The notes under the pieces are model-generated. The model had not been told where the DNA came from, did not search any database, and worked only from the letters and a program-made list of their open reading frames with translations. Shown in pieces: positions 16,603-54,425 of a stretch of DNA of 64,000 bases (position 1 is its first letter; the number at the start of each line of letters is the position of its first letter). The stretch lies in the NCBI GenBank assembly GCA_024275095.1, contig JAJRZV010000050.1, positions 1,603 through 65,602 of the forward strand. Direction: 5' to 3'. The stretch is from a bacterium (lineage in GTDB: Bacteria > JAJRZV01). The position numbers and the translations under genes were made by a program.

Positions 16603-18459
16603 TTATGGCGGCGGCATAAACTGGTCGTCAGCAGGATACAGATTGATTCGCAGTGCATACCTTAGAGCTTCATAGCCATCACTCGTGACGATATAGAACC
16701 GCCAGGTGAAGCTGTCTTCGGGAGACGTTTCGTCGCGTATGCGCACCTGTTGCTGGGCAGGATACACGCAGGCAGCAAGGTGCACGGTTGAATGGTCCAT
16801 TATCAGGTACGTGTTCTCACCAAGGGCGATTAATCCGTTCACAAGGGGTATGCATATATGGTCAAAGTCGAAGTTTCCCAGTGGAAACTGTACGAGATTT
16901 TCTTCGAGAAGGGCGGGTGAATATTCTACATAGCTTAGTGAAAAAGGGAAGGTTACGGACACTTCCCGATCGGTACCCTTGTTAACATTTAGTGTTACTG
17001 AATAAATATCCTGCTGCGTGGTACATCTTGAAACAGCCAGGGCATAATCGCGACTCGTTGTGACCAGTGAATATACCGGGAAAGAGGACGCAATTTCGAA
17101 TTCACTTTCTTCCAGGCAGTATTTCGGCAGGTCGGGTCTGATGTCCTGGTATGTACTTTCTGAAAACATCGTCGATATTTTTTGTGCCAGTAATTTTGCT
17201 GTTTTTTCAGCTTCTGCAGAGTGATAAAGGCTGTAGTTGACTTCCGTATAGGCAGGATTCCAGCCGGTTGAGTCACTGACTTCGGCCTTGAGCTGGTGCC
17301 GCCAGGCATCCCGGAGCATGTTTTTCCATTCCTCTGATACTGCTGCGCCGCTTGCCTCTGCATATTCCAGTGCCTGTTCGGCCTTCATCAGAGCGCGCCG
17401 ACTTTTCCAGTTCGCCACGCGGACAACATTGTCCATTTCGGTTCCGCCGAAAAGTCCTATGCCACCCATCCAGAGAAAAAGATTGTCTGAATACACCGGT
17501 CGCCAGTCTCCGTCAAAGACCAGAGGGAAAGGTCGTGGTTCAACACCAGCATCCAGAACGGTGTTCACATATTCTGAAATAGTTGCGATGGTATACCCTT
17601 CAGCTTCATAGGCCGATAGGCGTTCCTCGAATTCTTTAAAGTTTTCTTCGCGTGCTTTGAAACCGATAATAAAGTAGGGTGGGATGTCCCCTGTAGCCAG
17701 CAGTTCCCCGTCGTCGTAGTAGGCCCATCTCACTGAATAAGTCGTACCGTTAATTTCAAAGTCCAGGTTTTCAGGAGCTATGATGACGTATACGTTTCCT
17801 CGCTGGTAGAGAGGGTGGATGAAGGTTGTATCAGAAGAATAGTGGTACCTGAAAAGTCCGCGTGGAAAAGCAGCGATCCGGTATCCTTTTTCAGCCATGA
17901 AGTCCAGAGTGCCCAGCCCGAATTGGCCTTCCTGGGTGAAAACCACATCGCTGAAGGGCAAACACAACTCGCGTGAAAGGTCCATATTGAGCTTCCATGA
18001 CCATTCCATGTCTTCCCTTGGGAATGCCAGGTAGAGCTGATCGCTGTAGTGAAAGCTCATGAGCTCCACCTGGCCTCTTTCAACAAGAGTTTCCAGCTTT
18101 TTCAACACCTCGGGGTGACGCTCGGCCATTACTTCCAGCATGTAACCCTGAAGTTCAATGTTGGCTTTCCACCGTGGATGTTTCAGGTAAAAGTCAAGCA
18201 CCGGCTCAAAACTCTCGCGCACGATGAGGTCTTCCATGATTTCATTGGACACGGTATCACCGCCTTCACCGGTAAGTCCTCCTGCAATGTACTGGATGTT
18301 GAAGTGAAATAGAGAAAGTACGAAATGTGTACTGTCCGTTTTTTCAGTGTTGGCTCGAATGCCCCATGTTGCACACTCTTTGTTCGAACATCCCTGCACA
18401 GTAGAAAGGATGACAATGAGAAAATATGCCACTGGTATTGATAAGTTCGTTTTTTTCAT
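16603..18459 (-). CDS. exported (probable lipoprotein) glycoside-hydrolase-like protein of the GH38/GH57-type (beta/alpha)7-barrel family
   Basis: Start placed at internal ATG 18459 (MKKTNLSIPVAYFLIVILSTVQGC = signal peptide plus Cys); downstream FHFNIQYIAGG and RGQVELMSFHYSDQLYLAFP resemble GH57/GH38 N-terminal catalytic blocks. Family assignment from memory only. Confidence 0.5.
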   Translation of the reverse strand: MKKTNLSIPVAYFLIVILSTVQGCSNKECATWGIRANTEKTDSTHFVLSLFHFNIQYIAGGLTGEGGDTVSNEIMEDLIVRESFEPVLDFYLKHPRWKANIELQGYMLEVMAERHPEVLKKLETLVERGQVELMSFHYSDQLYLAFPREDMEWSWKLNMDLSRELCLPFSDVVFTQEGQFGLGTLDFMAEKGYRIAAFPRGLFRYHYSSDTTFIHPLYQRGNVYVIIAPENLDFEINGTTYSVRWAYYDDGELLATGDIPPYFIIGFKAREENFKEFEERLSAYEAEGYTIATISEYVNTVLDAGVEPRPFPLVFDGDWRPVYSDNLFLWMGGIGLFGGTEMDNVVRVANWKSRRALMKAEQALEYAEASGAAVSEEWKNMLRDAWRHQLKAEVSDSTGWNPAYTEVNYSLYHSAEAEKTAKLLAQKISTMFSESTYQDIRPDLPKYCLEESEFEIASSFPVYSLVTTSRDYALAVSRCTTQQDIYSVTLNVNKGTDREVSVTFPFSLSYVEYSPALLEENLVQFPLGNFDFDHICIPLVNGLIALGENTYLIMDHSTVHLAACVYPAQQQVRIRDETSPEDSFTWRFYIVTSDGYEALRYALRINLYPADDQFMPPP

Positions 18460-18523
18460 GTTTAAGCATTTTAACAAGAAAGGATGTTTCCATGAAGAAG
18501 TGATGGTGTATAGCTCAGGGTCT

Positions 18524-19714
18524 TTAAAGTCCGTACTCCCTGAGAAATGACTGAATGATGAGAACGGCGGATGCGCTGTGCACGACCCGTTTTCGACGCG
18601 TGCGCCTGGTGTGGCTGAGTAAAAGAGATGCATCCTTGGAAGTTAAAGATTCGTCAAAAGGAAATACTTTTATCTCTTTTCCAAGACGTCCCTGCAGGCG
18701 CTTTATAAATCGTAAATGTAGTGTTTCCTGCGAGGTATCATTAAATTCCCTGTTGTAGGGTACACCCACTACTACTGTGCAGGTGCGCTTTACCTTAGCA
18801 AGAGAAGCAATTTTTGTTAAAGCCTCTTTCCTGCTGTGCACGTCTATCGGGTTGAGAGGATACGGAGGAAGCTCCGGTTTTTCCTGAAGGGCGATGCCGA
18901 TGTGTCGTTCACCGAGATCCACAGCCATCACGGGAAAACGGAAAAAGTATCCCCAGTGAAAGGGAGGATAATCAGTGTGTGAGTGAATAATGCGTTCGCC
19001 TGCAGTGATGATATTGGTACTCAGGTAATGTGCTGTGAAGAATGCAGGAAGAGACGGCAGTCTCAGACGGGGGGTGAGACGGAGTTCTTCAACAAGTTTT
19101 AGAAGATGCTCTTCATCCTTTTGTGCTACGGCTCCTCCGTCACTGATTCCGGCTGAAGCAAGCAGCTCTTTGTACAGCTCTTCTGATATAACCCGCCTCC
19201 ACGACGAAAACGGCATTGAAAGTGTTACCTCAGCAGATGTAAAGGCTTTGAGAAGAGAGATTATGTGTCCGGTAGAAGGAATGTTCGAGGGAGGTGGTTC
19301 AAATACGAACTCCTGCACGGATTCCAGCAAGCTCCTCGCATGTTTCACAAGCTGTTGAAGGTGGGAGACTTTTATGGAGGAAAGAATTTTTATGCTGAGT
19401 GAGATAGGTACCGGATTGAGGATGCTTGCTGCAGAAAGGATTTTTTTGCAAGTTTCCATATCAGTGAGGGGTATGCCAAGTGATACGGAAGATATGTACT
19501 GCTTGATTGCACCAGGGATTTTGAAGCATTCAGTGTGTATTTGCAGAACAGGAAGCAGTCCATTTTTCAGAATGCCTTGTGCTTGCTCGAGAAGCGTATG
19601 CCCGGGAGTCGTGGAGCTTGTTTTCGGAAGTTTTTTGTTTGTAGCCCCCGGGATTACAGGGGCTGTGTGTAATTGATACGTGAAAAAACGTTTCGATGAC
19701 ATCTCAATCGCCAT
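18524..19714 (-). CDS. ruvX: Holliday-junction resolvase-like RuvX/YqgF domain (C-terminal 134 aa) preceded in frame by an uncharacterised ~260-aa N-terminal region
   Basis: C-terminal part MAVDLGERHIGIALQE...VVVGVPYN...HSASAVLIIQSFL matches YqgF/RuvX; the same frame stays open 786 nt upstream with no stop and no SD before the internal ATG at 18928. Confidence 0.6.
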   Translation of the reverse strand: MAIEMSSKRFFTYQLHTAPVIPGATNKKLPKTSSTTPGHTLLEQAQGILKNGLLPVLQIHTECFKIPGAIKQYISSVSLGIPLTDMETCKKILSAASILNPVPISLSIKILSSIKVSHLQQLVKHARSLLESVQEFVFEPPPSNIPSTGHIISLLKAFTSAEVTLSMPFSSWRRVISEELYKELLASAGISDGGAVAQKDEEHLLKLVEELRLTPRLRLPSLPAFFTAHYLSTNIITAGERIIHSHTDYPPFHWGYFFRFPVMAVDLGERHIGIALQEKPELPPYPLNPIDVHSRKEALTKIASLAKVKRTCTVVVGVPYNREFNDTSQETLHLRFIKRLQGRLGKEIKVFPFDESLTSKDASLLLSHTRRTRRKRVVHSASAVLIIQSFLREYGL

Positions 19715-19817: not shown

Positions 19818-20900
19818 TTAAATAATTCCTTCTTCTTCCAGTGCCTCACGTACCTTTTTTTTGGTGTCTGCGAGACGCTCTTCCATATAACGGGTTACCG
19901 TGTCCATGATGGTTGGATACATGAGTAATATTTCCTTAAACCGCTCTTTTTCGATTTTCATAAGTTCGGATTTTTTCAATGCTGTAACTGTCGCTGTGGT
20001 TTTGTCATCGGTAAGAAGAGCTATTTCGCCGAAGAAATCTCCTTCTCTGAGTTCAGCCAGCCTTACTCGTTTGCCTCCACCGATGCCTCTCGATACAACA
20101 AATGCTCCGCTCCGGATCACGTAAAAAGCTTCTCCTGGAGTTCCCTCAATGATTACATGGTCTCCTTTTTCTACCTTCACCAGTACGAATCGCTTGGCAA
20201 TTTCCTGAAGGTCGTCTTCGTTCAGATCGCGGAACAGGGGGATGTTTGAAAGTGTCGGTAGAAATACATGGTGGAAATAGAGATTTTCAACGTATTTTTG
20301 AACCTGCGGATATTTGCGGGATATTTCTTTAAGGTGTTTTTCACTGACTTCCAGGACTTCGCAATCGCTTTCCGCCATCACAGAAGCGGGCAGGGGTGTT
20401 TTGGCAAAGAAGGAGTACTGGCCTATAAAGGACCCTGGTCCCAGCGTTTTGAGCACGCGCACCTCACCATTTTCGCTTTTTTCCACCCGCGCCTCTCCAG
20501 AGGTCAGGAGATAAATCGCCTTTGCCCTTTCTCCCTGTTCAAGTATCACATCCCCTGCGGGAAAAACATGCCTGTTGAGATGGCGAAGAACATCAATAAA
20601 TTCTTCGTTAGAAAGTGAAGAGAAGAACAGGATTTTGGGTATCTTGAGAGGTTTCTTTTTCGGTGTTTTTTCTTCTGCTGGCTCTTTTGCTTCCTCTGCA
20701 CCTTCCGCCGTAATTTCTTCTACGGCTGGTTCTGGCGGGCTTCCGGTGAGCATTTTTATGAGGTCTTCAACGCGGGGATCATCCGGCTTGAGGTCATAAA
20801 GAATCTTGCTGAGTGAAAGTGCCTGGGGAACGAAACCCTTGTTGTAATACGCAAAGGCAACATCCAGATATTTTTCAAAGGCCTCTTCCACTTTTTTCAA
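19818..20900 (-). CDS. protein with two cyclic-nucleotide-binding (CAP-like) domains, TPR-like N-terminus; ORF begins at TTG immediately after an in-frame TAA
   Basis: 360 aa; two cNMP-binding beta-barrel segments (…FGEIALLTDDKTTATVTA… and …FIGQYSFFAKTPLPASVMA…); no HTH. Confidence 0.7.
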   Translation of the reverse strand: MKKVEEAFEKYLDVAFAYYNKGFVPQALSLSKILYDLKPDDPRVEDLIKMLTGSPPEPAVEEITAEGAEEAKEPAEEKTPKKKPLKIPKILFFSSLSNEEFIDVLRHLNRHVFPAGDVILEQGERAKAIYLLTSGEARVEKSENGEVRVLKTLGPGSFIGQYSFFAKTPLPASVMAESDCEVLEVSEKHLKEISRKYPQVQKYVENLYFHHVFLPTLSNIPLFRDLNEDDLQEIAKRFVLVKVEKGDHVIIEGTPGEAFYVIRSGAFVVSRGIGGGKRVRLAELREGDFFGEIALLTDDKTTATVTALKKSELMKIEKERFKEILLMYPTIMDTVTRYMEERLADTKKKVREALEEEGII

Positions 20901-38803: not shown

Positions 38804-39088
38804 GAAAATAATTATACCTTTTCTGTACGAGAGAGGGAGCCAGAAAATCCAGGGAATATGAAAGATTGAAAATGTACTGCCAGGTAGAAATTTAATTGAA
38901 GCTGGATCAGAAAAAAATCAAAAAATTGATTCCTGTCATATGTTTGCATTTTATGTACTTCAATTTCATTTCCGTGACTACCAGGGGTATTTATATATAA
39001 TTATTAAATTGCGGTTTTTTAAAAAAATTGAATTGAGAGGTTTTTTGTGATAAAAAAGTAAGAATTCAACTCAAGGAGGTATCCTTTC

Positions 39089-39388
39089 ATGAGTGAGAAA
39101 AAACTCAATTGCTGGGAATTCATGAAGTGTGGACGTGAGCCAGGAGGTTCTAAGGTTCACGAGCTGGGTGTTTGTCCTGCAGCTACTGCTGAGAAGGCGG
39201 ACGGTCTCAACGGAGGTAAAAACGGTGGACGTATTTGCTGGGCCATAGCAGGCACTATTTGCGGCGGGAAAATTACAGGTACATTTGCACAAAAGAAAGA
39301 GACCTGCCTCAAGTGCGAGTTTTACAAGCGTGTGCGCAAGGAAGAGGGTATTTATTTTCAGGTGCTCATGCCTGGTCAGACAGCATAA
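39089..39388 (+). CDS. small cysteine-rich protein with duplicated CW...CG motif (two-CW-like)
   Basis: 99 aa, strong SD AAGGAGG; MSEKKLNCWEFMKCGREPGG...GVCPAA...GGRICWAIAGTICGGK...CLKCEFYKRV; 7 Cys; isolated between AT-rich intergenic DNA and a convergent gene. Confidence 0.6.
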   Translation: MSEKKLNCWEFMKCGREPGGSKVHELGVCPAATAEKADGLNGGKNGGRICWAIAGTICGGKITGTFAQKKETCLKCEFYKRVRKEEGIYFQVLMPGQTA

Positions 39389-39390
39389 AC

Positions 39391-40752
39391 CTACAGGCCG
39401 ATTTCCTGTTTGAGTTTGTTGAGTGACTGTTTTATGGCTTCTTCCGGATAGGCATAATCTTCCAGTTTTCCGGCAAGGTAGCTTTCATAGGCTGCCATGT
39501 CGAAGTGGCCATGACCTGAAAGATTGAAGAGAATTACCCGCTCTTTGCCTTCCTCTTTTGCTTTAAGTGCTTCATCTATTGCGGCTTTTACTGCATGGGC
39601 GGTTTCAGGTGCAGGTATAATCCCTTCTGTCCGTGCAAATGTAACGGCTGCTTCGAATACCTCGCGCTGGTGATATGCTGTTGCTTCAATGATGCCGTCA
39701 CTGTACAGCCGGCAGAGCAGTGGCGCGTCTCCGTGATAGCGGAGACCTCCCGCGTGAATGGCAGGAGGAACAAAATCATGCCCCAGGGTGTACATCTTGA
39801 GCAAAGGAGTAAGTTTGCCCGTGTCTCCGAAGTCGTATGTGTATTCTCCTTTGGTGAGAGTTGGACACGCTGCAGGTTCTACCGCGAGCAATCTCACATC
39901 GCGTCCGTTAATTTTGTCTCTGGCAAATGGAAATGCAATACCCGCAAAATTGCTTCCACCTCCGACACACCCGATAACCACATCGGGGTAGTCACCTGTT
40001 ATCTCCAGCTGTTTTTTTACCTCCAGGCCGATGATGGTCTGGTGAAGCAGTACATGGTTGAGCACGCTGCCCAGGGAATACTTTGTGTCATCGTGGGTGG
40101 CAGCATCCTCGATGGCTTCTGAGATGGCGATGCCGAGACTTCCGGGGGAGTCTGGATTCTGCTGGAGAATTTGGCGTCCTGCGTTGGTTTTATCTGATGG
40201 TGATGGAATTACGCTGGCACCCCATGTTTCCATGAGCACTCGACGGTAAGGTTTCTGACCGTAACTGACTTTCACCATGTAAACTGTGATCTCTAAACCA
40301 ATGAGCGCCCCTGCCATGGCAAGGGCACTTCCCCACTGTCCGGCTCCGGTTTCAGTGGTCAGGCGCCTCACACCTTCTTTTTTGTTGTAATAGGCCTGTG
40401 CAACGGCTGTGTTGGGTTTGTGACTTCCGGCTGGGGAGACGCTTTCATTTTTGTAATATATGCGCGCAGGAGTGCCGAGGTGCTTCTCCAGGTTCAGGGC
40501 CCGGTGCAGAGGGGTTGGTCTCCACAGGGCGTAGATGTCAAGGATTTCTTCAGGTATGGGAATTTCGCGCTGGGTGGAGACTTCCTGCTCGATGAGTCCC
40601 ATGGGGAAGATAGGAGCAAGGTCGTCTGGCCCGGCCGGCTGTTTTGTTTGGGGGTTGAGAGGTGGCTCAGGTGGTGTGGGCATGTCCGGGATGATGTTGT
40701 ACCAGAATCGTGGAATCTCGCTCTCTTTAAGTAAAATTTTTCTCTGGGACAT
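39391..40752 (-). CDS. TrpB2-type tryptophan synthase beta-chain-like PLP enzyme
   Basis: 453 aa; long TrpB2-type N-terminus (…[40 protein letters not shown]…) and GGGSN PLP-binding loop. Confidence 0.9.
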
Positions 40753-40901: not shown

Positions 40902-41711
40902 ATGAAACTCGATTTTACAGAAGAACAGATCAAGCGATACGCACGGCACATTATCCTTCCGGAAGTGGGAGGAGTGGGCCAGAAGAAACTTCTTTCTTCG
41001 AGGGTACTGGTAGTGGGTGCGGGAGGACTTGGTTCACCCGCGGCATATTATCTTGCGGCAGCTGGGGTGGGAACCATAGGTATTGTGGATTTCGATACCG
41101 TGGAGCTGTCCAATCTTCAACGGCAGATCCTCCATTCCACGTCCCGCCTGGGGATGAGTAAGGTTGAATCTGCAAAGAAGACCATAGAAGATTTGAATCC
41201 TGACGTGAAGGTGATAATTCATCAGGAAATGCTCACCAGCGAGAACATCTTTGATGTTATTGATGCATACGATATTGTTGTTGATGGAACGGATAATTTC
41301 CCGGTGAGGTATCTTCTTAACGACGCATGTTATTTTCGGAAGAAACCCCTTGTTCACGGAAGCGTATTTCGTTTTGAAGGCCAGGCGACGGTTTTTAAGC
41401 CGGATGATGGACCGTGTTACCGCTGCCTTTATCCTGAACCTCCTCCCCCCGGGATGGTGCCATCATGTCAGGAGGCGGGAGTACTGGGTGTGCTCCCCGG
41501 TGTGATCGGAGTGATTCAGGCAACCGAGACAATTAAGCTCGTCCTTTCCACCGGTAGACCTCTCATCGGTCGGCTGCTGATTTACAATGCACTTGATATG
41601 GAGTTCAGGGAACTGCAGTTAAGGAGACATTCTCAGTGTCCATTGTGTGGCGAGAATCCCACCATTACAGAGCTTATTGATTATGAAGAATTCTGCCAGG
41701 TCCGGATTTAA
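40902..41711 (+). CDS. ThiF/MoeB-family E1-like adenylyltransferase with C-terminal CxxC...CxxC
   Basis: 269 aa, nucleotide-binding VLVVGAGGLGSPAAYYLAAAGVG, two CxxC pairs (CYRC...CPLC); no rhodanese domain. Confidence 0.85.
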   Translation: MKLDFTEEQIKRYARHIILPEVGGVGQKKLLSSRVLVVGAGGLGSPAAYYLAAAGVGTIGIVDFDTVELSNLQRQILHSTSRLGMSKVESAKKTIEDLNPDVKVIIHQEMLTSENIFDVIDAYDIVVDGTDNFPVRYLLNDACYFRKKPLVHGSVFRFEGQATVFKPDDGPCYRCLYPEPPPPGMVPSCQEAGVLGVLPGVIGVIQATETIKLVLSTGRPLIGRLLIYNALDMEFRELQLRRHSQCPLCGENPTITELIDYEEFCQVRI

Positions 41712-41713
41712 AC

Positions 41714-42025
41714 ATGAGACGACTCGGCATTCTTCTCACGCGTTCACCGGAACAGGGAGAGTTTTCACTTGCACTGAGACTCGCGCGCACAGCCCTGAAA
41801 AAAGGTGTTGATGTTCAGCTTTTTCTCATGGGAGAAGGTGTATACGGGCTTTTGCATTCTGAAATTCAAAAGCTTGCAGCCGAGGGCGTGCGCATTATGG
41901 TGTGTCGTTACAGTGCAGAAAGAAAAGGAATACCCCGGGATTTTTACGGGAATGTGGACTCTGGCAGTCAGTATGACCTTTCCCATATGGTAGCACAATG
42001 TGATCGTTTTATTCCTCTCACGTGA
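41714..42025 (+). CDS. DsrE/TusD-like sulfur relay protein
   Basis: 103 aa; ...GVRIMVCRYSAERKGI... and C-terminal ...QCDRFIPLT align with TusD active-Cys and C-terminal motifs. Confidence 0.7.
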   Translation: MRRLGILLTRSPEQGEFSLALRLARTALKKGVDVQLFLMGEGVYGLLHSEIQKLAAEGVRIMVCRYSAERKGIPRDFYGNVDSGSQYDLSHMVAQCDRFIPLT

Positions 42026-42345
42026 GGTTTTACATGGCAAAAAACGTTGTAGTGGTAATACGTGATCATCCATTGTCTGGAGACTCCTTCAGCGAGGGAC
42101 TTCGCATGAGTGTTGGTATGACCATTGCGGGTAATCGTGTAACAGTAATATTGCCGGAAGGTTCTGATACTGATCCACGACCCGAAAAGGTGGGCCTCGG
42201 AGAGATAGACATGCACTTTGAAGGTCTCAGTGAGTTAAAAGTGACGGTATTGACCCGGGGAATATGCTCTGAAAGAGCGCGCATGATTGACCACATTGAA
42301 TTTAGAAATATTTTGGACACCAGCGATGTCATCATATTCTGGTGA
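42022..42345 (+). CDS. DsrF/TusC-like sulfur relay protein
   Basis: 107 aa, DsrE/F-family fold; 4-nt overlap with the previous gene. Confidence 0.65.
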   Translation: MRFYMAKNVVVVIRDHPLSGDSFSEGLRMSVGMTIAGNRVTVILPEGSDTDPRPEKVGLGEIDMHFEGLSELKVTVLTRGICSERARMIDHIEFRNILDTSDVIIFW

Positions 42346-42607
42346 ACACAACAGAACCCTCTTTATTGTGAAAAGGGTATTCGGCCATAAGGGTGAATTT
42401 GTTAAGCAACTTATGCGTTCAGGAGATATAGTTGTTCTCTCAATGGAAGGTGTTTCAGAGTTGCAAGGGAAGTGGCCTGAAGGTGTGACTCTAAGGGTTG
42501 TAAAAGAGGATGCTGAGGCTGCAGGGATTGAATGCAGTGATATGATTGTAAAAATGGAAGAGCTGGTGGAATTGATTTTCAGCTGTCGTAAAGTTGTTAT
42601 CTGGTAA
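42326..42607 (+). CDS. DsrH/TusB-like sulfur relay protein
   Basis: ORF 42287-42607 trimmed to internal ATG 42326 (MSSYSGEHNRTLFIVKRVF...), ~93 aa, third member of the DsrEFH triplet. Confidence 0.55.
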   Translation: MSSYSGEHNRTLFIVKRVFGHKGEFVKQLMRSGDIVVLSMEGVSELQGKWPEGVTLRVVKEDAEAAGIECSDMIVKMEELVELIFSCRKVVIW

Positions 42608-42617
42608 GGAGGTGGAT

Positions 42618-42863
42618 ATGAGAAAGAAGGTGAAAGTGGATGATGAGATAGACATACGTGGAGAAGTATGTCCGTACACCTTTGTGAAGGCAAAAGTGGC
42701 TTTGGAGCAGCTTCCATCAGGAGCTGTCTTGAAGGTTATACTGGACCATCCACCAGCACGTGAAAACGTACCGCGTAGCATGAAAAGTGAGGGCCATGAA
42801 ATTATTGAAATAGAAAATATCAATGATACAGATTTTTATATTCTTATTCGCAAAAAGAAGTGA
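42618..42863 (+). CDS. tusA: TusA-like sulfurtransferase
   Basis: Internal ATG 42618 after GGAGG; MRKKVKVDDEIDIRGEVCPYTFVKAKVALEQL carries the TusA CPxP-type motif. Confidence 0.75.
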   Translation: MRKKVKVDDEIDIRGEVCPYTFVKAKVALEQLPSGAVLKVILDHPPARENVPRSMKSEGHEIIEIENINDTDFYILIRKKK

Positions 42864-48384: not shown

Positions 48385-49205
48385 GAATAGGCACTGCTGG
48401 AGTACCTCACTCAGCAAAGAAACGGGATTCGATCTCGGGAATAAAGCGCATTCACGAACTGGGCTTGGACGCCATGGAACTCGAGTTTGTTCGTGGAGTG
48501 AAAATGAAGGCCTCTGTCGCGGAAGAAGTACGCCGGATCGCGGATGAATACGACGTAAGGCTGACCGTTCACGCTCCTTATTATGTAAACCTGGCATCAG
48601 AGGAAAAGAACAAACGTGAAGCGAGCATCAAGCGCGTGGTGGACTCTGCCGAGGTTGGACAGCTCTGTGGAGCTGTATCTGTAACATTTCACGCTGGTTA
48701 CTACGGGAAAAATCCGCAGGCGGCAGGTGAGCTTATAAGGGAGGGGATCCTGCAAGTTCTTGAGCAACTATCAGGATGTTACATCACCATCAGCCCGGAG
48801 ACCACAGGGAAACCTTCTCAATACGGGACACTTGAAGAATTATTGAATATAAGTCGTGAACTGCGCGTTGGTCTGTGTGTTGATTTTTCCCATCTTTATG
48901 CACGGAGCCTGGGAGCCATTAACGGGAAGGATGCTTTTCGCAAGGTCATAAAACAGGTAAAAAAGGTTCTTGGCCCACGAGTAGTTAAAAATATGCATAT
49001 CCACGTTTCCGGAATGGAGTTTTCAAGCAAGGGAGAGGTCAGACACCTCAATTTTCGCGAGTCAAGTTTTGATTACGTGGGACTTGTTGACGCACTGGTA
49101 GAAGAGAAGGTGACAGGGATTGTTATCATTGAAAGTCCAAATCTGGAAGAAGACGCCCTGCTTTTTAAAGACCTTTATACAAAATTTTCAGGTGGCCGTG
49201 TCTGA
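48372..49205 (+). CDS. xylose-isomerase-like TIM-barrel protein (AP endonuclease family 2 / sugar-phosphate isomerase-like)
   Basis: 277 aa, IGTAGVP...ELGLDAMELEF... resembles the Nfo/TIM-barrel family; overlaps the ArsA-like gene by 13 nt. Confidence 0.55.
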   Translation: MDRLRIGTAGVPHSAKKRDSISGIKRIHELGLDAMELEFVRGVKMKASVAEEVRRIADEYDVRLTVHAPYYVNLASEEKNKREASIKRVVDSAEVGQLCGAVSVTFHAGYYGKNPQAAGELIREGILQVLEQLSGCYITISPETTGKPSQYGTLEELLNISRELRVGLCVDFSHLYARSLGAINGKDAFRKVIKQVKKVLGPRVVKNMHIHVSGMEFSSKGEVRHLNFRESSFDYVGLVDALVEEKVTGIVIIESPNLEEDALLFKDLYTKFSGGRV

Positions 49206-50544
49206 AAAGCCTTCACACAGCCTGAAAGAAGGGAATGTTTTTTTTACCGTATCAGCGGTTATTTTTCTTCTGCTGATTGTCCTTGATATTTCGCGGATTC
49301 CCGATATGCGGGCCAACGCCCATCGCGCCCTTGCCGATGTTGCGGTTTTAAGTATTTGCTTCGTGTATTTGTACGTCCGCCGTCCGCTTCCCGGATGGGC
49401 TGTGTTGTTGGTGGTACTGGTGGTCAAATTCATTTCATATACCGGGAGGCACCAGGTTTTGTCCGGACCACCTGTCCCTTATATGATGACTATGGAAGCG
49501 GCAACTCTCGTGCTTTTCTTCATTCTCAATAGAATTGACGATTTGATCATATTCGGTCTGCACCCTATACCTGTTCTTTTATCCGGCAGTACAGGCAATA
49601 TTTATGTTGTTTCACTCATGCTTCTTCGCTGCGGCTGGGCACTTTCTGCGAAACGCCAGCGTATAGCCGGCGTGCTTTCACATTTTTTTTACGGTGCAGG
49701 TGCCATAATGTCGCTGCCTGCATTTTTGATTACGCCGCTTGTTGTAAAGGGAAAAAGAAGAATTTTGTTAACACTGGGTATTACTGTTGTCGGAAGCGGC
49801 TTGATATTTTTTTCAGGCCATACCCCTCCGTGGGTGCTTCATTTAACCGGGTATTTTAAAGGAGAAACATGCGCATCCCTTGCGGGTGAAATATTTGGGT
49901 CGATGGGCTTCCGTTACTATCCTGCTATCGGGGCTCTTGCAGTGCTTGCAGCGCTTGTGGGTAACTCGTCACGCTCACGCGAACAGGATGTGCTGCCTCT
50001 TTACCTGATGTTTGCTCCGTTTATGGGCGGTGGACTTGAGGGTGTTAGCTTGTACGGTTTTTTTAGCCAGGAAAAAAGCCTTGTTTATTTCAGTTTCTCT
50101 TTCCTCTTGCTGCTGGGAGCAGGTGAGTGGCCGCAGGGGCTGTGTCACCCTCCGGTTCCGTATCTCATCATGATGTTTTTGCCACTGCTGGTTGTATATG
50201 TAATATCGCGGTTTCCCGGGTGTTTCCCGGGTCCGCGCGGGAAACAGTACGACGTGACATTTCAACTGGAAGGAATGTGCATTGAAAAAGCAGCGAAAAA
50301 GTACCTGAAAAGAATGATGGAGGAGGGCCTGGAAGGGAAAAGTATACCTGAGAGCGAGTATGAAGTGCTCCGGGAATTTGTGGAAACAGCAGATTTCAGA
50401 ACTCTCAGAAGCAGTTACCCGGTGCTTGATGGGAGCAAATCGGTGAAAGTGAAACTTTTTCAGAAGAAGCAACGTTTATATATAAAGGTGGAGGAGACAG
50501 ACGGTGGGGTTCAGGAGATTCCTGTTTTGAAAAAAAAGACTTGA
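49198..50544 (+). CDS. large polytopic membrane protein with C-terminal soluble domain, unknown function
   Basis: ORF 49120-50544; start placed at in-frame GTG 49198 overlapping the previous stop; many hydrophobic helices and a ~100-aa charged C-terminal domain. Confidence 0.45.
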   Translation: MSEKPSHSLKEGNVFFTVSAVIFLLLIVLDISRIPDMRANAHRALADVAVLSICFVYLYVRRPLPGWAVLLVVLVVKFISYTGRHQVLSGPPVPYMMTMEAATLVLFFILNRIDDLIIFGLHPIPVLLSGSTGNIYVVSLMLLRCGWALSAKRQRIAGVLSHFFYGAGAIMSLPAFLITPLVVKGKRRILLTLGITVVGSGLIFFSGHTPPWVLHLTGYFKGETCASLAGEIFGSMGFRYYPAIGALAVLAALVGNSSRSREQDVLPLYLMFAPFMGGGLEGVSLYGFFSQEKSLVYFSFSFLLLLGAGEWPQGLCHPPVPYLIMMFLPLLVVYVISRFPGCFPGPRGKQYDVTFQLEGMCIEKAAKKYLKRMMEEGLEGKSIPESEYEVLREFVETADFRTLRSSYPVLDGSKSVKVKLFQKKQRLYIKVEETDGGVQEIPVLKKKT

Positions 50545-52931: not shown

Positions 52932-54425
52932 TTAGAGAATTGCAAGTACCCCTTCTGCAGCGTGATACCCTGCAGCCATAGCGGTGAGCATGGGGTTGAC
53001 TCCCGTGGGATAGGGAAAAATGCTGGTATCAGCAACAAATATTCTTTCACTGTAACGGAGTGACAGATCAGGTCTCACCGGATAACGCTCGGGGTTCTCT
53101 CCCGCACAGCATGTGCCCTGTGGATGGGCGGAGTATATGAATCCCTTCCCTTTTCTGAAAGAGATCGTATGTTCGTTTATTTCTTTTTCTCGTCTGTAAC
53201 GAATACCACCAGATGCGAGGATTACCACTTCCTTAGCACCTGAACGCAGCAATCCCCGAGCACATATAGCCACACCTCTGACAATACCTGTTTCGTCATC
53301 CGGAGCGAGATTGTAGAAAGGAAAGGGCCGATCGGCCCAGTGCGTGATAAAGCCCGAATGTGAATCGTATCGCTGAACAATAAACATGCTCATGTGACGG
53401 TACCTTTTCATGAGCTGCAGGTGTTCGGCGGGAGTGCCGGGTAATGCCACAGAGGTTGTTACCGGTAGCAGAAACATGCTTTCTATAACACATCCTGTTT
53501 CTTCAAAGAAGCTGTCGCAGTAGCCCTGCATTGGTATTCCGTCAAATCCATCCACAGTTTCTTCATGAATTCCAAATACAATGGCTGTGGGGTGTGTATA
53601 AAATCCTTTTCCTATACGCCCGTGTGGGTCTGGATGATCTGACATAAAAAGCAGCAAAGGGGTAAAGAGAGCTCCACATGAGATAACAACGGTACGGGCG
53701 GAGATGTGAAAGTAGGATATAGGAGAACCGTACTGGTCAATGAGTTGGCCTTTCACGTGGACGCGGCCATTCCTTTCTTTTACTTCTGTAGCTTTTGCAC
53801 CACAAAAGACTGTCAGGCCATTTTTCAACCCCTCAGGTATAAAGGTCATATCTGTTGACCTTTTCTTAAATGTAGGGCATCCGGTAATGCATGTGCCGCA
53901 ACCGTCACATCCAGGAGCATTTCTGCGCATGAGCTCGGGGGTGCCACCTGCTGCTTTCATGGCTTCCATGAAAATTTCACCGTTGCGATTGAGCATGTTC
54001 TCCGGTACTGGTCCTACTTTAAGTAGCTGTTCAATATCATCGTAATATTCGTCGAGTTTTTTCTCGGCCCAGCCGAGTCCTGCTTTGATCCATTTTTTTC
54101 GATGCTTTTGCGGCATCCTGAGAGCGCACGCCTGGTTGATGCGGGATGCTCCTCCTAAGGTCCGGCCCATAAGTACGGGTATGGGGGGATCGCCCATTGC
54201 TGCTGTAAGTCCGCCATCCCGGTAAAAGTGTATAAGAGCAAATGCTTCATCTCGTCCGTGGTATGTATATGAATGGTGCCAGCCTTCCTCCAGGAGGTAC
54301 ACTTTTTTACCAGCCATGGCCACCCGATAGGCACACGCTGCTCCTCCTGGTCCTGACCCAATTATTACTGTATCAGGTGTGGTATCAATAAAGGGGTGTT
54401 TGATAGTAAATGAGTCAAGAATCAC
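52932..54425 (-). CDS. GMC-family FAD-dependent oxidoreductase
   Basis: 497 aa, VIIGSGPGGAACAYRVAMAGKKVYLLEEG dinucleotide fold, GMC-like C-terminus. Confidence 0.8.
   Translation of the reverse strand: MILDSFTIKHPFIDTTPDTVIIGSGPGGAACAYRVAMAGKKVYLLEEGWHHSYTYHGRDEAFALIHFYRDGGLTAAMGDPPIPVLMGRTLGGASRINQACALRMPQKHRKKWIKAGLGWAEKKLDEYYDDIEQLLKVGPVPENMLNRNGEIFMEAMKAAGGTPELMRRNAPGCDGCGTCITGCPTFKKRSTDMTFIPEGLKNGLTVFCGAKATEVKERNGRVHVKGQLIDQYGSPISYFHISARTVVISCGALFTPLLLFMSDHPDPHGRIGKGFYTHPTAIVFGIHEETVDGFDGIPMQGYCDSFFEETGCVIESMFLLPVTTSVALPGTPAEHLQLMKRYRHMSMFIVQRYDSHSGFITHWADRPFPFYNLAPDDETGIVRGVAICARGLLRSGAKEVVILASGGIRYRREKEINEHTISFRKGKGFIYSAHPQGTCCAGENPERYPVRPDLSLRYSERIFVADTSIFPYPTGVNPMLTAMAAGYHAAEGVLAIL

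Follow-up and report, generated by a model that had tools for sequence, protein, structure and literature searches.

The window, that is, the whole 64-kb stretch of DNA which we have analyzed, contains at positions 39089–39388 (+) a gene coding for a 99 amino acid stand-alone two-CW protein. The assignment is based on the list of open reading frames, on the sequence and on a match to the NF045718 family, and the gene is the longest reading of its frame. A Shine-Dalgarno sequence, AAGGAGG (39073–39079, +), is found nine nt 5′ of the ATG. The spacer preceding the gene (38804–39088, 285 nt) has 30.2% GC, compared with 47.5% for the 64-kb window, and the upstream gene is divergent. The strong ribosome binding site and the AT-rich upstream region described in the first-pass annotation are therefore both present.

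The protein has a mass of 10.7 kDa and is basic (pI 9.0, 16 K+R against 10 D+E), as had been noted for its tail. It contains seven cysteines (positions 8, 14, 29, 50, 58, 73 and 76) and two tryptophans (positions 9 and 51). The duplicated CW...CG element reported previously corresponds to the motifs NCWEFMKCG and ICWAIAGTICGG, and the CPAA and CLKC motifs are also found. The sequence has neither a hydrophobic segment nor a signal peptide.

Both flanking genes are on the − strand, so the two-CW gene is monocistronic. A weak sigma-70-like promoter candidate, GTGACT-16-TATAAT (38974–39001, +), agrees with the consensus in 10 of 12 positions and lies within the AT-rich divergent spacer, but the promoter scan is at chance level: one such site was found, compared with 1.8 expected in shuffled sequence. 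At the other end, the two-CW gene and the TrpB-like gene which follows it are convergent and only 2 nt separate their stop codons (39386–39393), therefore any terminator must sit within the coding region of the opposite gene. A weak hairpin with a T-run is present at 39393–39409 (+), and a terminator scan gave only chance-level results. The 5′-leader does not fold better than shuffled sequence (z = −0.31). No Rfam family, including tRNA, rRNA and riboswitches, reaches its gathering threshold in the 64-kb window, which is somewhat unusual for that length. A thermometer-like match below the threshold is found on the opposite strand only.

The genes which surround the two-CW gene are those previously described, as judged by Pfam. 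The upstream flank is a DUF362 gene (−) with a Tat-like N-terminus (RREFL), and an amidase gene is also found nearby. The downstream flank is a gene for a 453 amino acid PALP/TrpB-like protein (−). It is followed by a cluster (40902–42863, +), 1.5 kb from the two-CW gene, which contains genes for ThiF/MoeB and DsrE, two small open reading frames and a TusA gene. This cluster had been named MoeB-DsrEFH-TusA. The ThiF, DsrE and TusA assignments are supported by Pfam; on the other hand, the two small reading frames which had been taken for DsrF and DsrH (42022–42345 and 42287–42607) have no Pfam match at E ≤ 1e-3. As called, they overlap by 59 nt.

The rest of the window is a housekeeping region, with rpoN, pyrR/B/C, carA, pyrG, ribBA, fmt, rsmB and rpe, in which we have found neither a second two-CW protein nor any gene for a receiver, a kinase, an MCP, a che product or a hemerythrin. 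The only gene of a signalling type which we have detected in the window is located at 19818–20900 (−), 18 kb from the two-CW gene: Its product, of 360 amino acids, has a pair of cyclic-nucleotide-binding domains, and Pfam recognizes nothing else in it. The cNMP_binding domain is also the commonest partner of two-CW in its closest fused homologues. Two long open reading frames, at 16603–18633 (−) and 49120–50544 (+), coding for 676 and 474 amino acids, do not belong to any Pfam family at E ≤ 1e-5.

The two-CW family and its cysteine framework

The two-CW family, which the first-pass annotation had named, is indeed the correct one. A profile search shows that residues 6–85 (39104–39343, +) match positions 1–80 of the 80 positions in the NCBIfam model NF045718, named "two-CW domain", with a score of 117.2 bits (E = 3.1e-34). 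The score is well above the curated cutoff of 35 bits, the match covers the full model, and both CW motifs and the Cys framework are present. A Pfam scan of the protein at E ≤ 1 did not find any family, so there is no Pfam entry for this domain. A word-indexed protein search detected 1597 homologues, and an exhaustive search found 1825 clusters at 50% identity which match at E ≤ 1e-3. In a collection with one genome per species, at least 591 stretches encode a relative of the protein. It had been considered that the reading frame might be spurious or restricted to one lineage; both the family match and the number of homologues contradict this, and the reality of the gene and its membership of the family are far beyond chance.

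From this collection we have kept the 80 loci most similar to the window protein. They are distributed among about 20 phylum-level lineages, including the archaeal Methanospirillum and Thermoplasmata. Desulfobacterota, Nitrospirota/Thermodesulfovibrionia, methanogens, Brocadiia, Elusimicrobia and Omnitrophota are among the lineages which contain two-CW proteins. The lineages named in the titles of these loci are mostly anaerobic. The closest homologue has 72% identity with the window protein. Some database homologues already have the product name "two-CW domain-containing protein", and a literature search on the two-CW family and NF045718 found no relevant publication. The window protein has both CW motifs and all the conserved cysteines, and presents no structural difference from NF045718. 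It belongs, as an ordinary member, to a family which is already catalogued though uncharacterised. Since the window gene is a typical member it adds little by itself, and what is of interest is the family rather than the locus.

The cysteines and tryptophans form a strictly conserved framework. An alignment of 41 stand-alone homologues from many phyla has 21 invariant positions, which include the seven cysteines, both tryptophans, R16, R48, T56, K69 and E86. Identity to the window protein is 60–74% across phyla, over the whole length. When fused domains are also considered, all seven cysteines are kept in 261 of 278 domain copies. The only cysteine which is recurrently substituted is C58, replaced by S, R, I, F, A or G in 10 of the 278 copies; leaving truncated copies aside, C8 is replaced once and C14 never. 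This pattern corresponds to six obligatory cysteines and a nearly fixed seventh.

The framework may be followed along the gene. The first CW motif, C8-W9-x4-C14-G15 (39110–39133, +), has C8, W9 and C14 invariant in the alignment of 41 sequences. It is followed by C29-P30 in the GVCPAA segment (39173–39178, +), where C29 does not vary and the conservation of P30 is 90% or more. The second CW motif, C50-W51-x6-C58-G59 (39236–39265, +), has an invariant C50 and a variable C58. The last two cysteines, both invariant, form the C73-x2-C76 pair (39305–39316, +), at the start of a long basic C-terminal helix. The spacings between successive cysteines in the window protein are 5, 14, 20, 7, 14 and 2 residues.

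The presence of two CW motifs might suggest an internal duplication. We have compared the profiles of the N-terminal and C-terminal halves with hhalign, which aligns only the four columns of the CW motif, with a probability of 0.7%, so that a tandem repeat cannot be demonstrated in the two-CW domain. The distances from C14 to C29 and from C58 to C73 are both 15, yet C58 is dispensable and its counterpart C14 is not.

The structure predicted by AlphaFold2 from an alignment of 146 sequences has a mean pLDDT of 90.2 and a pTM of 0.81, and all five models reach at least 77.7. The model has short helices at residues 8–12, 23–26 and 30–33, a beta-hairpin at 56–63 which bears C58, and helices at 66–74 and 77–89; the rest is irregular. 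Such a compact model with few regular elements would be as expected for a metal-stabilised fold. A profile search of PDB sequences gave only noise (E > 1). A Foldseek search of the model against the PDB gave only matches with E ≥ 2 and TM ≤ 0.22.

Stand-alone proteins, fusions and gene neighbourhoods

Two-CW domains are found either alone or fused to other domains. Stand-alone proteins (up to 165 amino acids) are found in 59 of 81 non-redundant loci and fusions in the remaining 22, and nearly all of the best 120 among the 1597 matches have 93–125 amino acids. The isolated small protein had been seen as a departure from the norm, but the stand-alone form of about 100 amino acids is the commonest one among the sampled loci.

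Some stand-alone proteins have characteristic C-terminal tails. The tail of the window protein, FQVLMPGQTA (39356–39385, +), is of the "LLKPGQxY" type, which is that of one stand-alone subfamily. Among 117 close stand-alone homologues, 82 have a PGQ-type tail, placed 22–23 residues past the CxxC motif whenever both motifs could be located; it is absent in a set of 52 fused representatives. A second type of tail found in stand-alone proteins is amphipathic ("S..LLKKL").

Some proteins consist solely of two-CW domains, two or three of them in tandem (L062, P0121, P0122, P0123, P0002 and P0003). The L062 protein, from Latescibacterota (882–1931, 349 amino acids), scores 359 bits, about three domains' worth. 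Paralogous two-CW genes are found side by side in L010 (5815–8629), L035 (5485–6861) and L071 (5530–6324), either as two fused kinases or as a tandem pair of small copies. In several MAGs of Nitrospirota at least two stand-alone copies are found on separate contigs (L036/L061, L064/L066, L050/L073 and L043/L070).

All the fusion partners which we have found are signal-transduction modules, and none of them is an oxidoreductase. Among the 22 closest fusions, cNMP_binding together with a Ser/Thr kinase (Pkinase) is found in 13, HisKA/HATPase_c in three and hemerythrin in two; HD-GYP, STAS, GAF, REC and Hpt are found in others. In 49 long cluster representatives we have found HATPase_c (16), HisKA (11), PAS (9), Pkinase plus cNMP (8), Response_reg (7), PP2C (3), PilZ (3), GGDEF (2) and cyclase (2) domains. 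The two-CW domain is usually N-terminal in these proteins. In other cases it is C-terminal: NIT+MCPsignal+two-CW, PAS+HisKA_2+HATPase_c+two-CW, GGDEF+two-CW, and REC+two-CW, the latter found three times. The two-CW domain had been described as normally the N-terminal module of histidine kinases. It does occur on them, usually at the N-terminus, but histidine kinases are only one of many partners, and the C-terminal cases do not agree with this description.

The neighbourhoods of the stand-alone genes point in the same direction as the fusions. We have carried out a census of 59 stand-alone loci, with crude gene calls (a greedy choice of the longest open reading frames) and a limited set of HMMs. 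Of 111 immediate neighbours, 24 (22%) are signalling genes, compared with 33 of 302 genes (11%) placed at least three genes away (odds ratio 2.25; p = 0.005 in a one-sided Fisher test). By position, the share of loci with a signalling gene is 24% at −1 and 19% at +1; from the third gene outwards it is mostly 5–14%, yet it is still 19–24% at positions −5 and −6. The top Pfam families among the 111 immediate neighbours are Response_reg, PAS, GAF, MCPsignal, HATPase_c and HAMP. A control of the same size with distant genes gave Response_reg (7), HATPase_c (4) and CheW (3), while PAS, GAF and MCP were not among its top families. When all neighbours up to three genes away are clustered, only three annotated families stand out by their recurrence: the RR/HK superfamily, in 20 loci, MCPs, in 6, and CheW, in 3. 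Three unannotated clusters of neighbours are found in three loci each.

A chemotaxis gene is located up to two genes away in 9 of the 59 loci. For chemotaxis genes alone the difference between near and far positions (12 of 208 against 11 of 302, p = 0.18) is not significant. This contrast is weak because che genes cluster, so we rely instead on the broader contrast for signalling genes and on the fusions. About two thirds of the stand-alone loci, including the window, have no adjacent signalling gene detectable with our limited set of HMMs.

Some individual loci are more explicit. A che operon in Nitrospiraceae ends with CheB followed by two-CW. One locus has the order RR-GAF, two-CW, PAS-HAMP-MCP and PAS-HK; it is probably archaeal, since it contains nitrogenase-like and archaeal ThrRS-editing genes. 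The Methanospirillum locus L038 matches it, with RR, two-CW and PAS-HAMP-MCP. An operon in Elusimicrobia contains CheW, two-CW, PBP and MCP, and in another locus the two-CW gene is accompanied by receivers, cyclases and GGDEF genes. Arrangements of this kind on a single strand, such as CheW-two-CW-PBP-MCP, RR-two-CW-MCP and CheB-two-CW, are found in several lineages: They mirror the fusion of MCP and two-CW.

Possible function of the two-CW protein

In our opinion the two-CW protein is probably a cytoplasmic signalling module with a Cys-ligated metal centre, either Fe-S or Zn, made here as a separate subunit which acts in trans. To judge from the sequence and the model, the seven cysteines probably hold a metal centre: We infer metal binding because the cysteines are fixed and the model is compact, with little secondary structure. 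The six strictly fixed cysteines and the nearly fixed seventh would hold an Fe-S cluster or one or more Zn-thiolate sites. An Fe-S centre is favoured because the set of ligands is composed only of cysteines and the distribution appears to be anaerobic; a Zn-thiolate would be the main alternative. The two-CW module would then be an input or coupling part of signal-transduction proteins. The window gene would have a promoter of its own and give rise to a free 10.7-kDa protein, which would bind in trans to a partner encoded elsewhere, of the chemoreceptor, kinase or cyclase type, possibly docking through its conserved tail. The signal would be the state of the metal-thiolate centre, which might reflect redox, O2/NO, metal or sulfide status. 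A role in redox or metal sensing had been suggested before, and in this generic form it is plausible. What stands against this reading is, first, the locus itself, as the two-CW gene is monocistronic among housekeeping genes and no receiver, kinase, MCP, che or hemerythrin gene was detected in the window. The stand-alone loci in which no signalling gene was detected next to two-CW, and the non-significant contrast for chemotaxis genes, also count against it. We should also note that proteins with the REC+two-CW architecture fit a role in output or interaction as well as a role as sensor.

A more specific proposal, which we put forward tentatively, is that two-CW may be a hitherto unrecognised sensor with a new fold, in which an Fe-S or Zn-thiolate centre responds to redox, O2, NO or sulfide status, and that its stand-alone copies may be diffusible subunits which dock through their conserved tails onto chemoreceptors, kinases and cyclases.

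An alternative which we consider rather unlikely is a structural Zn-knuckle adaptor: Zn would hold the fold, and the module would mediate contacts or oligomerisation in signalling complexes, without any sensing. REC+two-CW, GGDEF+two-CW and the histidine kinases with a C-terminal two-CW do place the domain where output or interaction domains are usually found. The proteins with two or three tandem domains and the two conserved types of tail in the stand-alone forms also suit an adaptor, and so does the lack of a classical Fe-S motif and of any Fer4 match in Pfam. However, the fixed cysteines are seven, an odd number which does not suit a pair of Cys4 Zn sites, and in fusions the domain is found N-terminal to PAS/HisKA or to cNMP plus kinase, a position typical of input domains. 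The bias towards anaerobic lineages would not be expected of a plain Zn fold either.

It is improbable that the protein is a small ferredoxin-like Fe-S carrier which transfers electrons to nearby redox enzymes. The locus of the closest homologue (L090–L092) would agree with such a role: In the stretch 7548–8300 of L090 a gene for a 135 amino acid hemerythrin precedes the two-CW gene by 45 nt, and downstream there are Fer4, Pyr_redox and glutamate-synthase genes, all on one strand. The upstream DUF362 gene of the window, with its Tat-like N-terminus, might also be mentioned in its favour. Nevertheless, the domain is fused to signalling modules and never to an oxidoreductase, and no family of redox enzymes recurs among the neighbours of two-CW genes. 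The protein also differs from the ferredoxins of the Fer4 clan, since the canonical CxxCxxCxxxCP motif is absent (there is not even a CxxCxxC) and it does not match any ferredoxin family in Pfam. A GMC-oxidoreductase gene is found both in the window (52932–54425, −) and in L090 (3158–4714), which may hint at a related lineage.

The position of the gene had led to the suggestion of a sulfur-related role, as a sensor or relay accessory of the ThiF/MoeB-DsrE-TusA cluster. This is highly improbable and largely refuted by synteny, in spite of the abundance of cysteines in the protein and the distance of only 1.5 kb. The TrpB-like gene intervenes in the opposite orientation, so the genes do not belong to the same operon. 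In the other two-CW loci no homologues of DUF362, TrpB2, ThiF, DsrF/H-like or amidase genes are found within about 6–8 kb of the two-CW gene; there is a single DsrE-like match and a single TusA match, in separate loci. The converse comparison agrees: None of 80 metagenomic loci with relatives of TrpB2 (67–74% identity) contains a two-CW, DUF362, ThiF, DsrE or TusA gene. Homology at the Pfam level is also absent. There is no link between the two-CW protein and the adjoining sulfur-relay genes.

Finally, the suggestion that the protein might be a Cys-rich precursor peptide, that is, a RiPP precursor of the SCIFF or ranthipeptide kind, has practically negligible probability: These precursors are likewise short and Cys-rich and are found in comparable lineages, but the two-CW protein has no leader/core pattern, is conserved over its full length across phyla, has a confidently predicted globular fold and forms an integral domain of signalling proteins of 300–800 amino acids, while no maturase family recurs among its neighbours, where Radical_SAM is outside the 25 commonest families.

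Taking up again the reading as a metal-centre signalling module, several known systems may be compared with it. The zinc-binding domain CZB (PF13682), the hemerythrin of DcrH-type MCPs and PilZ are accessory cytoplasmic sensor modules of chemoreceptors and c-di-GMP enzymes, and their combinatorial use is the same. Two-CW is likewise a small module, of a metal or ligand type, found at the C-terminus of an MCP, on GGDEF, kinase and receiver proteins, and alone in genes beside MCP and che genes. The resemblance is an analogy in the way they work: At E ≤ 1 in Pfam there is no detectable homology of the two-CW protein to CZB, hemerythrin, PilZ or Wbl.

The WhiB-like (Wbl) proteins offer a possible mechanistic analogy. 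They are stand-alone, Cys-rich proteins of about 80–120 amino acids with a basic C-terminal helix and an O2/NO-sensitive [4Fe-4S] cluster, which bind to a partner protein. They differ in having four cysteines instead of seven and in not being known as fusions to signalling domains, and their Pfam family (Whib, PF02467) is not matched by the two-CW protein. Wbl proteins are not known outside Actinobacteria and their phages, unlike two-CW proteins, whose approximately 20 lineages include archaea. As for the eukaryotic zf-CW domain (PF07496), in which four cysteines bind one Zn and which reads histone tails, the resemblance to two-CW lies in the name and in the fact that Cys and Trp residues are conserved in both. 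There is no Pfam match between them, and they are unrelated as far as we have tested.

In summary, few small domains of anaerobes are conserved as strongly as two-CW, which is present in hundreds of species-level genomes and forms part of kinases, phosphatases, cyclases and chemoreceptors. Pfam has no entry for it, and our searches of solved structures and of the literature did not find a match or a paper, so the family is a good target for experiments. Knowledge of its cofactor and of its signal would annotate thousands of genes now called "hypothetical". It could also show that taxis and regulation receive a new cytoplasmic input in sulfate reducers, Nitrospirota, anammox bacteria and methanogens. 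If the stand-alone copies are in fact diffusible sensors, they would represent an overlooked trans-acting input to chemotaxis and to other signalling in anaerobic bacteria and archaea.
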